This document shows, piece by piece, positions 13,438 through 19,472 of a stretch of DNA of 19,472 nucleotides (position 1 is its first letter; each line of letters begins with the position of its first letter). The stretch comes from a virus. The position numbers and the translations under genes are program-made. Location of the stretch: UHGV virus genome UHGV-0294315. One strand, given 5' to 3'. The notes beneath the pieces were generated by a model. It was not told the origin of the DNA. It did no database searches and saw only the letters and a list, made by a program, of their open reading frames with translations.

Positions 13438-14210
13438 CCACTATTACCAAAGAGCGACTACTTACAATCAAGCAGTGGCGCGAAACATACGGACCTGGTA
13501 GCAACGTTGTACTGCCAGCAGAAGAAGCGGAAGAACTGGCACGAATTGCACTGGCATCGCTGGAAGCAGATCCAGTTGCTTATATTTTCAAACATCCGGC
13601 CGGGAAATTATTCTGGGCTTTGACGGATGAAAGTAATAAAGATCAATCGGACGTTATTCCTGTTTATGCCACCCCTCCAGTGCCAGTAGTACCTGAAGAA
13701 AAACCAATGCCTAACCCTCTTAAAATGTACGCGGTCGATGCTGTTGCCGCTATTGCAGAGGTGAGAGGCTGGAACGCCTGCCGCGCCGCCATGCTTCAGG
13801 CCGAACCTGTAAGTAATAGTGATGAGTTACCGCTGGACTATCTGCAAGGACACAAAGACGGCCTGGAGTGGGCTGCACAATTGGCAGAAGCCAATCATCC
13901 GCAAACAGGTGACTGGTTGTACGACGACCCAATCGATCTTGCCAGGGCGATTCGCAAAGGTCCTGATATGCCTACTGTTCAGGCTGGCAACTCTCCGGTA
14001 ACTCCGGATGGTTGGATAAGCTGTAGTGATCGAATGCCGGATACCAAAACAGCCGTTCTTGTTGCCGTGGAGTTTGACAGGAAAGGTGACTGGCGAATGA
14101 AATGGGCGACTTACATCCCGGGTCATCCTGACGCTAATGATGGGTGGATAATTCCTGGTGCGTCGTGGAAACCGTCACACTGGATGCGGCTACCAGAGCC
14201 TCCACTTTGA
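13434..14210 (+). CDS. DUF551-type phage protein (258 aa)
   Basis: ATGA-coupled to the HNH gene; C-terminal WISCSDRMPD...W...LPEPP resembles the DUF551 pattern common in enterobacterial prophages (from memory). Confidence 0.55.
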   Translation: MTTITKERLLTIKQWRETYGPGSNVVLPAEEAEELARIALASLEADPVAYIFKHPAGKLFWALTDESNKDQSDVIPVYATPPVPVVPEEKPMPNPLKMYAVDAVAAIAEVRGWNACRAAMLQAEPVSNSDELPLDYLQGHKDGLEWAAQLAEANHPQTGDWLYDDPIDLARAIRKGPDMPTVQAGNSPVTPDGWISCSDRMPDTKTAVLVAVEFDRKGDWRMKWATYIPGHPDANDGWIIPGASWKPSHWMRLPEPPL

Positions 14211-14306
14211 AAGCGAAGCTTATACATATCTTTTACATCAGCAATCTATTGTTAATCTCCAATCAATGTTACGTTGTCATCTCACTCATGCTTTGGAGGT
14301 AGTGAT

Positions 14307-14486
14307 ATGTCTTGTCCAAAATGCGGTTCTGGAAATATTGCAAAAGAAAAAACAATGCGTGGATGGTCTGGAGATTATGTGTGCTGCGATTGCGGATACA
14401 ACGACTCTAAAGACGCATTTGGAGAGCGTGGTAAAAACGAGTTTGTTAAAATTAATAAAGAAAGCGAAGGCAACGAAAAAAGCTAA
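14307..14486 (+). CDS. Small zinc-ribbon protein (59 aa)
   Basis: RBS GGAGGT; MSCPKCGSGNIAKEKTMRGWSGDYVCCDCGYNDSK has two CxxCG pairs. Confidence 0.5.
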   Translation: MSCPKCGSGNIAKEKTMRGWSGDYVCCDCGYNDSKDAFGERGKNEFVKINKESEGNEKS

Positions 14487-14551
14487 TTTATTTATTCATA
14501 TATGAAAACAATGTAACCAATATTCGAATTGAAGAACTGAAAGAACACCAA

Positions 14552-14575
14552 GCCGCCTGATGGCGGTTTTTTATT
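14552..14575 (+). terminator. Intrinsic terminator at the end of the accessory gene block, upstream of xis
   Basis: GCCGCC-TGAT-GGCGG hairpin followed by TTTTTTATT. Confidence 0.7.
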
Positions 14576-14617
14576 GCCTGATTTGCAGGTTCGATTCCCT
14601 ATTCGGAGATAGCACTC

Positions 14618-14818
14618 ATGCAACACGAACTACAACCTGATTCACTGGTTGATTTGAAATTCATCATGGCTGATACTGGCTTCGGTAAGACCTTCATCTA
14701 TGACCGGATTAAGTCCGGCGACCTGCCAAAAGCCAAAGTTATCCACGGGCGAGCAAGATGGTTATATCGTGACCATTGTGAATTCAAAAATAAGCTCTTA
14801 AGCCGCGCCAATGGGTAA
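14618..14818 (+). CDS. xis: Excisionase / AlpA-family small DNA-binding protein
   Basis: 66 aa, LVDLKFIMADTGFGKTFIYDRIKSGDLPKAKVIHGRARWLYRDHCEFKNKL fits the AlpA/Xis winged-HTH pattern; located immediately upstream of the integrase. Confidence 0.65.
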   Translation: MQHELQPDSLVDLKFIMADTGFGKTFIYDRIKSGDLPKAKVIHGRARWLYRDHCEFKNKLLSRANG

Positions 14819-15090
14819 AATAGCGGGTAAAATATTTTTCACATCTAAAAAACACCATTCCAATCAATCCCCTGCCGCGCCAAGTAGATGTCTGCAGGGG
14901 ACACTTTAAAGACCTTTCTCTACATTTCACTTCATTACATAACCACTTAAAAAAACAGTAAGTTATCACCGAATCGGCCTGATTTTCATTTCAGTTAATT
15001 TCATGACATTACAACCTCGTGATGGTATAAGTGATGGTATTCCCCAGTTCGATATGCAGATACCATCAATCTACCAAAATGAGTACAGAT

Positions 15091-16365
15091 ATGGCCATTA
15101 ATGTGCTTTCCCCCAAACAGATAGAAAACGCCAAGCCGAAGACCAATGATTACAAACTTACCGATGGAGGGAGTTTGTATCTACTGGTACGAAAGACTGG
15201 TGGAAAATACTGGCGTATGAATTATCGTTTTGATGGAAAACAAGTGACATTGGCATTAGGGGTCTACCCAGATGTCTCACTTGCAACAGCGCGGAAACGG
15301 CGTGATGAAGCCAGGCAACTACTAGCCGATGGTCGTGATCCTCGCGAAGCAAAGAAACCCAAAAAGGAAGACCCAATTTCCCCCACGTTCGAGAGTGTTG
15401 CCAGAGAGTGGCATAGTAGAACGATAGGGCATCCTGAGTGGAAAGAGATCACCCGTAAAAAAATTCTCCGAGAAATGGAAAACCACCTCTTTCCTGCCAT
15501 CGGTTCAAAGCCTATCGATACGCTCAAAACCCGTGACTTGATGCCGATGCTGGTTGAGATGACTGAGAAAGGAATTGGTGCCACAACGAGCCGGGTAAAA
15601 ACCACTATGACGAGCATCTTCCGTTATGCCGTGCAACGTGGAATTGTCGATTACAACCCTGCCCACGATCTAAAAGGTGCAATTACGACCCCCAAAGTAC
15701 GACATCGCCCCGCACTACCTCTCGAACGTTTACCTGAACTGTTAGCGAAAACGAGAAGTTACACGGGAAGACCATTGACTCGCCTAGCAGTTCTATTTTC
15801 CCTGCACACTTTTGTGCGATCCAGCGAACTACGACATGCCAGATGGGAGGAGATCGACATTGAAAATGGGCTATGGACGATACCAGGACAACGTGAAGAG
15901 ATCGCAGGGGTTAAATTCTCAGAGCGGGGTGCAAAGATGGGGGCTGCTCATTATGTCCCGCTATCTAGTCAGGCTATCGGGGTACTGGAGGATATAAGGA
16001 AAATCAGTGGTGAATATCTGCTGGTTTTCCCCGGTGACAGCAACCCATATAAACCGATGAGCGAAAACACAGTTAATAAAGCACTGCGAACGATGGGTTA
16101 CGACACTCAAAGTGATGTTTGCTTGCATGGGTTCAGGGCGATGGCCTGCTCTGCACTGACCGAATCAGGACTCTGGTCACGCGATGCAGTTGAACGGCAG
16201 ATGAGTCACCAAGAAAGAAACGAAGTGCGGGCAGCATATGTGCATCTTGCGCAGCACATGCAGGAACGCCGCAGAATGATGCAATGGTGGTCTAATTATC
16301 TGGAACTAAATAAGGACGAATTTCATGCTCCTTATGACTTATCAGGTATTAACATTATCAATTAA
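15091..16365 (+). CDS. int: Tyrosine integrase, P4-type (DUF4102 arm-binding N-terminus plus phage integrase catalytic domain)
   Basis: MAINVLSPKQIENAKPKTNDYKLTDGGSLYLLVRKTGGKYWRMNYRFDGKQVTLALGVYPDVSLATARKRRDEARQLLADGRDP is a typical P4-family integrase N-terminus. Start could also be ATG 15079 or the track's GTG 15031. Confidence 0.85.
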   Translation: MAINVLSPKQIENAKPKTNDYKLTDGGSLYLLVRKTGGKYWRMNYRFDGKQVTLALGVYPDVSLATARKRRDEARQLLADGRDPREAKKPKKEDPISPTFESVAREWHSRTIGHPEWKEITRKKILREMENHLFPAIGSKPIDTLKTRDLMPMLVEMTEKGIGATTSRVKTTMTSIFRYAVQRGIVDYNPAHDLKGAITTPKVRHRPALPLERLPELLAKTRSYTGRPLTRLAVLFSLHTFVRSSELRHARWEEIDIENGLWTIPGQREEIAGVKFSERGAKMGAAHYVPLSSQAIGVLEDIRKISGEYLLVFPGDSNPYKPMSENTVNKALRTMGYDTQSDVCLHGFRAMACSALTESGLWSRDAVERQMSHQERNEVRAAYVHLAQHMQERRRMMQWWSNYLELNKDEFHAPYDLSGINIIN

Positions 16366-16395
16366 ATTTTCTTATAATTTAAAACAGAGGTCATA

Positions 16396-17277
16396 ATGCA
16401 GCATTCAAAAGAGAATGAAACTATATTCTTAGGAAATCTATGGATTGACAAAAAAATACCACCATTAGAATATTGTTCATTTGAACGCGCTTCAAGACTA
16501 TTAGAATGCGAGATTGATGATTTATTACACCTATACGAAATAGGCGCTTTTAATATCGCATTCAAGGCGGATGGACTTGCAGTTAGATTTAATGTTAATT
16601 TCCTCTATAAAAATCAGAAAATGGAAATTGACTTAATTCATCCCGTATTAACTAATCAATCACTAGAGATGGAATTTTCAACAATATGGTATGACCTTAA
16701 AGATGACTCCTTTGAACATTTTGAAAATGGGCTTCAAATTATAGGATTTGCCTGTGGTATTTGGTACGCCGATGATATGATAAGTGACATAAAAAATGGA
16801 TTAGCTATAGATCCAGATTATGAATTCAGGCTTAAACCGGTAAAAATACGAGATAATGTTTTGATGGCAACGGCCTCATATGAAGGAAATAAGGTCATTG
16901 ATATTCCATTTGAAGATCTTCTTATCATGCGAAGAGATTTAGAGTTAATATGGAAATCAGTAAAAACTGGAATTCCTATGCCAAGTTTACTTACGAAAAG
17001 AATTTCATCTGAACCTAAAATCCCCAAGCGATTAAATAACACTGCTGAGCATCATGCAAAAAATAGGGGGGGGTTATTAAATGCAGCCATATATATATTA
17101 GCAAAATACCCAAGCGAATGTCGTGGTGAAAGAAAAGAGATAAGTCCTGAAAAGTGGACTAACGCCATAATTAAACATTTAGGAGAGCTACCTCCAATAT
17201 TTATCACTAATGAACAAGAAATCTTAAGAAAATTACGATTAGCGGTTAATCATGCGGGATTAAAACAAAAGGGGTAG
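16396..17277 (+). CDS. Hypothetical 293-aa protein, AT-rich standalone gene between int and alpA
   Basis: Own consensus -10 TATAAT (16373-16378) and RBS AGAGG; long intact ORF in strongly AT-rich DNA. No domain recognised. Confidence 0.6.
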   Translation: MQHSKENETIFLGNLWIDKKIPPLEYCSFERASRLLECEIDDLLHLYEIGAFNIAFKADGLAVRFNVNFLYKNQKMEIDLIHPVLTNQSLEMEFSTIWYDLKDDSFEHFENGLQIIGFACGIWYADDMISDIKNGLAIDPDYEFRLKPVKIRDNVLMATASYEGNKVIDIPFEDLLIMRRDLELIWKSVKTGIPMPSLLTKRISSEPKIPKRLNNTAEHHAKNRGGLLNAAIYILAKYPSECRGERKEISPEKWTNAIIKHLGELPPIFITNEQEILRKLRLAVNHAGLKQKG

Positions 17278-17379
17278 ACTGAAACAATCTACAGGTAGAG
17301 TTGATTACACTACCTTCACAGCATTTTGATATCCCCATAGTATCTGCCGTGTTCATTACATAACACGGCAGGTAATTTC

Positions 17380-17595
17380 ATGACATTAAAAACTTATCCT
17401 ATCACTGGACATGCCCGCCCACGAGCTACTGCTGACTTTTTGCAAATAAGTACGGTTACTCTCTGGCGCTGGGAAAAGAACAATCCTGAATTTCCCAAAT
17501 CTATACGCATTTCAAAACGGGTATCTGTTTACGATGCACAAGAAATTAGGCAGTGGGTTAAAGCTCAATCAGCAGGATTGGAGGAAGTAGTGTAA
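17380..17595 (+). CDS. alpA: AlpA / HTH_17-family transcriptional regulator (P4 Vis-like)
   Basis: 71 aa, ATADFLQISTVTLWRWEKNNPEFPKSIRISKRVSVYDAQEIRQWVK matches the AlpA/excisionase HTH pattern. Confidence 0.65.
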   Translation: MTLKTYPITGHARPRATADFLQISTVTLWRWEKNNPEFPKSIRISKRVSVYDAQEIRQWVKAQSAGLEEVV

Positions 17596-17644
17596 TGACA
17601 ATATTAACAAAGCTGGGGAGAAAAAAGCCTCCCCAACGTATTAA

Positions 17645-17839
17645 TCAATTCTTTGGTTCTAAACCTCGGCTTTGTAACTCTTTGCGTAGAATGCGCTTGA
17701 TCCAAGCCGCTAGCGATTCATCGCCATCCTGCTGTTGTGCTTGTTCCATCAGTTCACGCAGTTCAGGGTCAAGTCGGAACTGGAATGGCGGATTCCCACG
17801 TCTTTCATTTTTGTGTGTTGACACGTCAATTACACCCAT
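17645..17839 (-). CDS. Ribbon-helix-helix (Arc/CopG/MetJ-like) DNA-binding protein
   Basis: 64 aa; NPPFQFRLDPELRELMEQ resembles an RHH beta-strand/helix-A signature. Its promoter region carries repeated TGTAATG half-sites. Confidence 0.5.
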   Translation of the reverse strand: MGVIDVSTHKNERRGNPPFQFRLDPELRELMEQAQQQDGDESLAAWIKRILRKELQSRGLEPKN

Positions 17840-17873
17840 TGTAATGTATTTATGTGTAATGACACATTACACA
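17826..17873. promoter_or_regulatory. Operator-like array of TGTAATG / CATTACA half-sites at the RHH gene start
   Basis: Perfect palindrome GTGTAATG-ACA-CATTACAC (17854-17872) plus further copies TTGTAATG (17839-17846) and AATTACAC (17829-17836). Confidence 0.45.
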
Positions 17874-17955
17874 CAGAAAAACAAAATAGCAACGCCCCGG
17901 AGTGTTTGCAGCACCACCGAGGCGTCTGACCAGCACGTTATATGAGGTAACGAAG

Positions 17956-18132
17956 ATGGCTAAACAGAAGTGTACCTGGTTATTTGCGGCGATCAACCGC
18001 AGTCAACGTAATGCCCGTCCGGTAATGTTAAGGATCACCGCAGATAACGAGCGATCAGCGCGGCGCAGACTTGCCCCGGACTATGTACTGAGCTTTGCCG
18101 GGCGCATTCCCTGCGGAGGTGAACATGCGTAA
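17956..18132 (+). CDS. Icd-like host cell-division inhibitor (P4-family), 58 aa
   Basis: RBS TGAGGT; MAKQKCTWLFAAINRSQRNARPVMLRITADNERSARRRLAPDYVLSFAGRIPCGGEHA resembles Icd-like proteins of P4-type elements (W-FAA...ER-ARR-LA-DY-L-FAGRIP pattern, from memory). Confidence 0.5.
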   Translation: MAKQKCTWLFAAINRSQRNARPVMLRITADNERSARRRLAPDYVLSFAGRIPCGGEHA

Positions 18133-18484
18133 TTATCCGCATCCCGGCGAACGCTGGCAGCATGAACGTGGCTGGACGGTCACGATTATCCGATTAATAG
18201 AAGCCTCGCCCTCTGTGGCGCTGGTTAATCCTGAATTCAGCTGTGAAGTGCTGATACGTCATGACAGCGACAACCAGCTTTCTTCCTGCCCTCTGGCATG
18301 GTTTGAACAGCGATATACGCGCCTGTTTGATGTACCGCTCTTTAAGCCTGCACCAGCTCCTGCAGGCGGTAGTGGTTCCGGCCCGCTGACACTGCATCCG
18401 TCTGTGCTATTTATCCGCTGGCGGGAGCGTAGCATATGGTGTTCTGCTGAGCCTGATGACGGTCACTATTCAAAGTTTCTCTGA
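18125..18484 (+). CDS. Hypothetical protein (119 aa)
   Basis: Start at internal ATG 18125, overlapping the Icd-like stop. Confidence 0.45.
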   Translation: MRNYPHPGERWQHERGWTVTIIRLIEASPSVALVNPEFSCEVLIRHDSDNQLSSCPLAWFEQRYTRLFDVPLFKPAPAPAGGSGSGPLTLHPSVLFIRWRERSIWCSAEPDDGHYSKFL

Positions 18485-18515
18485 CAAAACACCGCTGAAA
18501 ACGGAGTAATCCACA

Positions 18516-18800
18516 ATGAATATTTCAAACGGGCACAACGGTGCTCAGGGCCAGACTTTGCCTGAAAAACACAATACCGGTGCTTTTGCCTATGGGTTGT
18601 CAGAGGACGGTTTCGGAAAGCTGACCCGCGCAAGAAATGCCTGCGACATGCTCCAGCTTCTCTTTTCTGAATACCCGTCTCAGGCCGGAGCACTGGACGC
18701 AGGCTTTGCGCCTGGTGTCGCCGCGCTGATGGAGTACCTGCGGGCAGATTTGACGGATATTGCACACAGCTGCGCACTGATTGAAGGAGGTGCCAGATGA
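18516..18800 (+). CDS. Hypothetical protein (94 aa)
   Basis: RBS GGAG upstream of ATG; intact ORF. Confidence 0.5.
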   Translation: MNISNGHNGAQGQTLPEKHNTGAFAYGLSEDGFGKLTRARNACDMLQLLFSEYPSQAGALDAGFAPGVAALMEYLRADLTDIAHSCALIEGGAR

Positions 18801-19180
18801 ACCAGCCGCAGGTTTCCATTTTCCCGGCAGAAATGACCACCGCGCTTTACCGGTGGGCTATTGCTTCAGCATGGCGGCAGAAAATGCTGAACGAAACTGG
18901 CAATGATCAGTATGGTCCGCACAGCCTGACGGTGGAGCGTATTGAAATGGCCATTGCGCTGCATATCGAGTGCGCACTGATTAACGAGTACGGCGAAGCA
19001 CAGGGCGCCGCTGCCGCGCTGGCACTGCTGACTGACATGCTGGAGCCGTCACTGCTGACCGCGCCGCCGGTACTGACCGCGCGCGGTTGTGAAGTAATGG
19101 CGGAGATGTACCGCACGCTTCCGGCGGCCTTTGATGTCTGCTGCAGTACCGGTGTGACGTTGTATCAGGGGGAAGTATGA
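18797..19180 (+). CDS. Hypothetical protein (127 aa)
   Basis: ATGA-coupled to the genes on both sides. Confidence 0.5.
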   Translation: MNQPQVSIFPAEMTTALYRWAIASAWRQKMLNETGNDQYGPHSLTVERIEMAIALHIECALINEYGEAQGAAAALALLTDMLEPSLLTAPPVLTARGCEVMAEMYRTLPAAFDVCCSTGVTLYQGEV

Positions 19181-19472
19181 CAATACAGACGGTTACGCAG
19201 ATTTCAGCCGCCGCGCGGGGGAAATGGCCCGTTATTCTGCAGATGCTGCGTATTGATGTACCTGAAAACGGCAGGCACGGTCCCTGCCCGAAATGTGGGG
19301 GCAAGGATCGTTTTCGCCTTGATGACCTTGACGGGCGCGGGACGTGGATCTGCAGCCAGTGTGGCAATGGTGACGGTCTGGATCTGGTTAAGCTCGTAAC
19401 CGGTTACAGCGTCAGAAAGGCTGCGCAGGAGGTGGCGCAGATGCTTAATGTGCCGGATGTGCAGGAACTGCC
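19177..19472 (+). CDS. P4 alpha-type primase, N-terminal zinc-binding domain (gene runs off the right edge)
   Basis: Open to the window end; GPCPKCGGKDRFRLDDLDGRGTWICSQCGNGDGLDLV is the primase zinc-ribbon pattern CPxCGG...CxxCG. Confidence 0.6.
   Translation, partial: MTIQTVTQISAAARGKWPVILQMLRIDVPENGRHGPCPKCGGKDRFRLDDLDGRGTWICSQCGNGDGLDLVKLVTGYSVRKAAQEVAQMLNVPDVQEL

Follow-up and report, generated by a model that had tools for sequence, protein, structure and literature searches.

A candidate operator-promoter region next to a divergent small repressor-like gene in a P4-like satellite

Described immunity systems and the satellite locus

Phage P4 is the textbook case of a satellite silenced by an antisense RNA, and the immI operon of phage P1 (c4 RNA, icd, ant) is controlled by the C1 repressor together with the C4 antisense RNA. 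In the immI region of phage P22, Arc represses both Pant and Pmnt, and cooperative dimer-of-dimers binding to repeats is the mode expected of the RHH class (PMC2724298). Icd and YlcI/YnfO have been mentioned at the gene level in satellites (PMC13612085). Our literature search found no functional study of the small-repressor family in satellites, and a limited search found no experimental work on the YlcI/YnfO family (NF041551), which is represented in the lambdoid prophages DLP12 and Qin.

Here, we analyzed a stretch of 19,472 nucleotides (UHGV-0294315; "the window" throughout), which was read as E. coli chromosome and whose right third is a P4-like satellite (Table 1). An E. coli genome (L001) is 100% identical to the window over positions 17300 to 18500. 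Past the point where the window ends, its island continues with a TOPRIM/DUF927 primase, two Psu-family genes, and an Ogr/Delta zinc finger, and it adjoins tRNA-Arg (RefSeq); int and a helix-turn-helix gene with an AlpA Pfam match, further marks of a P4-like satellite, are also present in L001. The plus-strand gene downstream of the region studied here is Icd-like, as a preliminary description of this DNA had proposed, and its protein clearly passes the NF033153 cutoff (84 bits versus 25; E = 5.5e-24). Three small genes come after it.

TABLE 1 Positions of the features discussed, in window coordinates
Feature	Position	Strand	Remarks
Integrase	ends 16365		followed by a gene of unknown kind, 293 aa
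AlpA/Vis-like helix-turn-helix gene	17380..17595	+	Pfam Phage_AlpA E 1.6e-7; RefSeq annotation; convergent with the small repressor-like gene
Terminator-like hairpin	17612..17637	-	terminator scan; between the convergent alpA-like and RHH-like genes
RHH-like small gene	17645..17824	-	59 aa from GTG 17824; RefSeq start ATG 17839 (64 aa)
Second, weaker dyad copy TTGTGTGTTGACAC (GTGT-N4-ACAC)	17811..17824	.	41 bp left of the main dyad; overlaps the -35 hexamer and the probable GTG start
TTGACA, -35 of rightward promoter candidate	17818..17823	+	PWM scan of alignment A2
Half-site copy AATTACAC	17828..17835	-	inside the rightward-promoter spacer; kept in 23/39, nnTACAC in most
Half-site copy TTGTAATG	17839..17847	+	overlaps TAATGT 17842-17847; A2 columns T34, A35, G38, T39 invariant
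Main conserved dyad ATGTGT-AATG-ACACAT	17852..17867	.	over the predicted start points of both promoters
Palindrome of the preliminary description, 9-bp arms TGTGTAATG-ACA-CATTACACA	17853..17873		repeat finder
TAATGT, -10-like hexamer of leftward promoter candidate	17864..17869	-	inside the right arm of the palindrome
TTGCTA, -35 of leftward promoter candidate	17887..17892	-	abuts the leader hairpin; A2 columns C82, A83, A84 invariant
Conserved leader hairpin of the Icd-like mRNA	17892..17925	+	RNAalifold
CCA 17930-17932, small hairpin 17936-17952 with Shine-Dalgarno GAGG in the loop, ATG 17956	17930..17958	+	
Icd-like gene	17956..18132	+	first ORF of the rightward (early) operon toward primase (L001 layout)
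Sibling-allele repeat AGGTGCGATTCA			3 copies
Sibling-allele repeat GTGGGCCACAC			3 copies
Sibling-allele repeat ACATGGTAATTACC			2 copies
Sibling-allele repeat GTGTCGGACAC			3 copies
Sibling-allele repeat GTACCTATT/AATAGGTAC			inverted pair

Several features of the surroundings were also recorded. To the left of the satellite, positions 13500 to 14905 hold the end of another prophage (torI, Eag, DUF551). Since only a 3' attachment-site remnant of tRNA-Arg, CTGCAGGGGACAC, is left in this segment (ARAGORN found no tRNA), the satellite seems to stand in tandem with that prophage at argW; L001 differs from the window in that its satellite is placed after an intact tRNA. Eight nucleotides upstream of the alpA-like ATG is a 10-bp perfect stem (CTGCCGTGTT/AACACGGCAG, loop CATTACAT; 17345 to 17372) with a weak RybB-like Rfam match (E = 0.48), which could be a terminator or attenuator for alpA. 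An exact 15-nt direct repeat, AATTTCATGACATTA, occurs about 80 nt upstream of the integrase start (14998 to 15012) and again across the alpA-like start codon (17375 to 17389), and may mark a scar of recombination or a regulatory site that the two genes share.

The element studied here and P4 are alike in being satellites of the P4 type (int, alpA/vis, primase, psu, delta), and in both the region in question lies between the vis/alpA gene and the early operon toward primase. However, P4 (promoter PLE) uses a processed antisense CI RNA of the C4 family and has no divergent small repressor gene at that place. Rfam searches found no C4/CI RNA (RF01695; clan CL00128), isrK, or c4-a1b1 in window positions 14500 to 19472 (E ≤ 1) or 17800 to 17990 (E ≤ 10), nor any of these at the gathering score in the whole satellite of L001. 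In phage P4, the positive control (L050, 8420 to 8705), the same approach recovered C4 (74.9 bits), isrK, and c4-a1b1 in the early leader. Because this RNA was found in P4 but not in the satellite, the protein cassette appears to occupy the place of the RNA immunity system, and a satellite lacking C4/CI RNA would need another immunity factor. Cross-talk between the P4 CI RNA and the leader of the satellite was rejected, the duplex energy being no better than for shuffled leaders. P1 immI shares with the satellite an Icd-family first ORF behind a structured leader, but the satellite has neither C4 RNA nor ant, and its candidate controller is the divergent small protein.

In mechanism, the closest known system is Mnt/Arc of P22. 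As in immI, a small, beta-strand-reading repressor would be encoded divergently from the genes that it controls, short dyad operators are predicted to lie inside two overlapping, opposed promoters, and one repressor is proposed to affect both. The N-terminal PPFQFRL stretch of the small protein also resembles PHFNFRM of Mnt. The homology is nevertheless not significant (hhalign E = 9e-4, probability 22%), and both the operator sequence and the half-site spacing differ. Moreover, the satellite has one repressor gene where P22 has two, and its operon leads from the Icd-like gene to primase, whereas that of P22 leads to the antirepressor. Several units of 7 to 8 bp, direct and inverted, inside a promoter are shared with omega of pSM19035, MetJ, and CopG, although the units in the satellite do not keep a strict 7- or 8-bp register.

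The small divergent gene and the conserved dyad

Homologues of the small protein mostly have 59 aa and begin MSTHK, and PGAP picks the equivalent GTG start in a related locus (L048); GTG 17824 is therefore probably the start. As judged from sequence, the ATG at 17839 is specific to the lineage of the window. Identity to the window protein was 73 to 92% among 28 aligned homologues and 58 to 98% over 45 genome loci. Two of the Citrobacter loci (L027 and L036) carry two repressor-like small genes in tandem with a TTGACA-containing segment before each, suggesting duplication of the cassette.

An AF2 monomer of the small protein had an extended N terminus (residues 13 to 24) and two helices (25 to 38 and 43 to 57; helix pLDDT 85 to 93); dimerization is expected to be required for the RHH strand to form. 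A Foldseek search of the PDB with this monomer gave nothing at E ≤ 0.001, and the protein had no Pfam match at E ≤ 0.1. The best PDB profile match was the RHH protein HP0222, at a sub-threshold E of 0.064. RefSeq names the protein YlcI/YnfO, yet it falls under the NCBIfam cutoff for that family (NF041551, YlcI_YnfO_N; 20.7 versus 30 bits; E = 3.2e-4), whereas three of the sibling alleles described below (B, C, and E) are true members at 55 to 66 bits. No link to allele B was made by hhalign (probability 1.3%). Two sibling alleles were linked to the small-protein family by hhalign, with probabilities of 99.5% and 97.4%, the latter being allele F. This allele in turn has Pfam matches to RHH_5 (5.5e-5), HicB (3e-4), Arc (0.006), and RHH_1 (0.024), of which only HicB is just at its Pfam cutoff (21.1 versus 21 bits), the other three being below theirs. 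We regard an RHH fold of the window protein as probable, although weakly supported.

To compare the region between the small gene and the Icd-like gene, we collected 45 genome loci with relatives, 39 of which entered an alignment of the intergenic region (alignment A2). The region is conserved over Enterobacterales and Orbales, with invariant blocks set between freely varying columns. The preliminary description had reported a perfect 19-bp palindrome here and taken it, with two further half-site copies, as an operator-like array. The sequence GTGTAATG-ACA-CATTACAC was indeed found at 17854 to 17872 as described, but its 3-nt center ACA is not symmetric, so that it is an inverted repeat with a spacer and no strictly perfect 19-bp palindrome. 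Nor did the 19-bp register hold up among relatives: it was perfect in only 3 of the 39, its outer three pairs were broken in 31 to 51% of the sequences, and no pair had changed on both sides, leaving no compensatory change. What is conserved is a shorter dyad, with arms ATGTGT in 34 and ACACAT in 35 of the 39 sequences and a varying center (GATG in 13, AATG in 11, CATT in 7, and AATT in 4). AATG and CATT, each the reverse complement of the other, would be neutral for a binder of two-fold symmetry. We conclude that ATGTGT-N4-ACACAT, and not the 19-bp palindrome, is likely the functional dyad.

The two further half-site copies reported with the palindrome are present, each as a 7/8 match (AATTACAC at 17828 to 17835 on the minus strand and TTGTAATG at 17839 to 17846 on the plus strand). 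They had been placed at the start of the RHH gene. This is right insofar as they flank the RefSeq ATG (17839 to 17837), but the likely start is the GTG at 17824 to 17822, and with that start the copies lie in the 5' untranslated region, off the start codon. The outer copies (17828 to 17846) were only moderately conserved in the alignment, and apart from the second dyad copy in Table 1, neither the rest of the window nor the rest of the satellite yielded a convincing further copy. Conservation of the region could largely stem from promoter elements, from the first codons of the repressor, or from a 5' RNA hairpin.

Promoter candidates were found on both strands. On the plus strand, TTGACA (17818) and TAATGT (17842), 18 nt apart, fell in the same columns in 38 of the 39 sequences (PWM scan); on the minus strand, TTGCTA (17892) and TAATGT (17869), 17 nt apart, did so in all 39 (as TTGnnn-17-TAATGT). 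The start codon of the repressor is 0 to 15 bp from TTGACA, so that any leftward promoter is bound to overlap the rightward one. Of the four TGTAATG copies, two fall exactly on the TAATGT hexamers of these overlapping, opposed candidates, and such copies may therefore be promoter elements as much as half-sites. As -10 hexamers they are weak, matching the consensus at 3 of 6 positions (T1, A2, and T6 are kept), and a consensus promoter scan of the window called neither TAATGT candidate. It called instead ATGACA-17-CAAAAT on the plus strand and GTGTCA-16-TACAAT on the minus strand, a pair that is less conserved (11/39 and 15/39 sequences) and whose -35 hexamers both lie inside the palindrome. 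With either predicted pair, both promoters have core elements that the dyad overlaps.

Exchange of the repeats together with the small gene

The small gene and the motif are co-inherited in about 40 species while the alpA-like and Icd-like neighbors change. Both persist where the alpA-like gene, the Icd-like gene, and the next gene of the window are undetectable, and the AlpA-like neighbors in motif-keeping loci belong to another subfamily. Besides the window allele, at least five alleles (B to F) of the divergent gene were found in loci with a 97 to 100% identical Icd, in a leuX satellite (L047), and in a locus (L049) that supplied allele F and has a different and more distant variant of the Icd-like ORF. 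Each sibling allele carries its own intergenic repeat of 11 to 14 bp (Table 1), which, at the level of sequence, is the pattern expected of cognate repressor-operator cassettes. Including the window type, at least six small divergent genes were counted in L047, L049, and L051 to L070, with the exchange junction at the leader hairpin. A distant DNA search of a phage database returned only three short matches, all to the leader, one of them being L049.

The position of the repeats is also shared by alleles B to E, in which the repeat falls in the -35/spacer region and on the predicted start site of the rightward promoter. For three sibling alleles the scan calls this promoter (9 to 11 of 12 matches), with one repeat copy in the -35/spacer and one just after the -10. 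The window follows the same plan, with AATTACAC in the spacer and a dyad that begins 5 nt after the -10. In a separate case, Citrobacter youngae (L028), the repressor-operator-leader module lies between HigB/HigA-like and CcdA/CcdB-like genes (ORF translations judged by eye) and host genes. Neither an integrase nor a primase occurs within 3 kb, and the locus looks like a decayed island that has retained the module.

On this comparative evidence, the RHH-controlled switch put forward in the preliminary description is supported in part: the repeats are tied to the small gene, but the palindrome register is not supported. The repeats were observed, as were the conservation that they show, the linkage to the small gene, and the allele-specific replacement. 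We consider it somewhat probable that a repressor cassette of the P4-like satellite has its control region at positions 17811 to 17892. This stretch probably forms an operator-promoter complex for the divergent small repressor, a kind of switch that is already known.

Part of the same evidence could be read without any protein operator. The conserved blocks would then be the core elements of two overlapping promoters and a 5' stem-loop of the Icd-like mRNA, with the small protein acting elsewhere or having a different role, which we regard as improbable. The identity of two TGTAATG copies with promoter hexamers fits such a reading. In addition, the minimum-energy fold of the leader begins with the palindrome hairpin, transcription from the rightward promoter would begin, near 17854, with the first base of that hairpin, and in the six inner palindrome pairs (A2 columns 48 to 53 with 57 to 62) the one-sided changes are all G-U compatible (23 G-U versus 0 A-C cells). 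Yet no pair of the hairpin had changed on both sides, the percentage paired was that of shuffled sequences, and 19 of 234 cells of the inner pairs were true mismatches, besides the rarity of a perfect palindrome. An RNA-hairpin reading of the 19-bp palindrome was rejected for its lack of two-sided changes and its shuffle-like pairing, and is retained as a minor rival because of the G-U compatibility. Finally, a promoter consensus cannot explain why five alleles have differing repeats of 11 to 14 bp, four of them at the same promoter positions.

It is still less probable that the repeats bind another protein, be it an AlpA/Vis-like regulator or a helper-phage factor (Ogr/delta, Cox, CRP). AlpA is the master activator in Gram-negative PICIs, and the alpA-like gene is 50 bp from the small gene. 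However, most loci with an unchanged motif either lack a detectable AlpA of the window type or have one from another subfamily, and the repeats follow the alleles of the small gene, which argues against AlpA as the binder. Within the satellite, moreover, the motif was found only in this intergenic region between the small gene and the Icd-like gene. The dyad, read as TGTGT..ACACA, has a superficial likeness to a pair of CRP half-sites, but its GTG..CAC spacing is 2 bp too short for the CRP consensus. Likewise, TGT-N12-ACA, the Ogr/delta site, is not present, the candidates having N13 and outer bases that are not conserved. Both sites were rejected because the spacing does not fit these consensus sites.

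That the cluster is due to chance or to a low-complexity, GT/AC-rich stretch is barely credible: although one perfect inverted repeat of 9 bp (loop ≤10) is expected 0.82 times per window and so is not rare alone, TGTAATG was observed 9 times in the window versus 2.83 expected (a count reached in 0 of 200 shuffles), GTGTAATG had four matches (≤1 mismatch) within 50 bp versus a maximum of two in 100 dinucleotide shuffles, and conservation of position and sequence over about 40 species already contradicts such a reading. An extra exact 11-nt copy of the dyad core, GTGTAATGACA, which would fit chance, lies over the alpA-like stop codon (17590 to 17600); since it is not conserved in related loci, it is probably fortuitous and was left out of the array.

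For the repressor-operator cassette, we infer how the protein folds and binds, where transcription starts, and in which direction regulation runs, as follows. The small divergent protein, probably as an RHH dimer, would bind the dyad ATGTGT-N4-ACACAT at 17852 to 17867, and it would also bind the weaker related sites GTGTGTTGACAC (17813 to 17824), AATTACAC, and TTGTAATG. These sites would interleave with the rightward promoter of the Icd-like-to-primase operon (TTGACA and TAATGT with the 18-nt spacer; predicted start near 17854) and with the leftward promoter of the repressor (TTGCTA and TAATGT with the 17-nt spacer; predicted start near 17857). Repressor on these sites would block the rightward promoter at its spacer and start site and the leftward promoter at its -10/start region. 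The satellite would thereby stay silent and the repressor would control its own expression. Because the two promoters overlap, RNA polymerase at one would exclude it from the other.

The leader of the Icd-like gene and implications for satellite immunity

The leader hairpin of the Icd-like mRNA showed strong covariation: 10 of its 15 pairs had changed on both sides, in 57 cells versus 16 expected, a value that none of 500 shuffles reached. All six repressor alleles retain the leader structure, and two-sided changes were seen in 12 of 19 pairs (0/500 shuffles reached this). The Shine-Dalgarno hairpin (17936 to 17952) covaries as well, with G-C replaced by A-U in 14 sequences, and CCA is able to pair with UGG of AUGG, a pairing that is conserved and never varies. 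Rfam has no family for the leader or the operator; the sub-threshold matches were a traJ 5' UTR (E = 0.098) and the R1162 antisense RNA (E = 0.32). Allele-specific sequence stops at the hairpin at 17892 to 17925, which thus marks the boundary of the cassette.

The operator itself is an ordinary repressor-promoter arrangement, a known kind of mechanism. Tentatively, we suggest that many P4-like/PICI-type satellites of Enterobacterales may have swapped CI-RNA immunity for an exchangeable cassette made up of a tiny RHH-type master repressor and its operators. This cassette, with at least six specificities, would recombine at a fixed junction formed by the leader, which would be an undescribed cis-regulatory RNA. 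SaPI helpers inactivate Stl; if our suggestion is true, induction of the satellite would likewise require helper phages to inactivate the RHH repressor. In the papers that we searched, repression and helper induction of P4-like/PICI elements without C4/CI RNA are not described. A swappable small repressor would be a candidate target of helper-phage induction, and, with its exchangeable operator specificities, it would be a testable candidate for satellite immunity and for immunity types between satellites.
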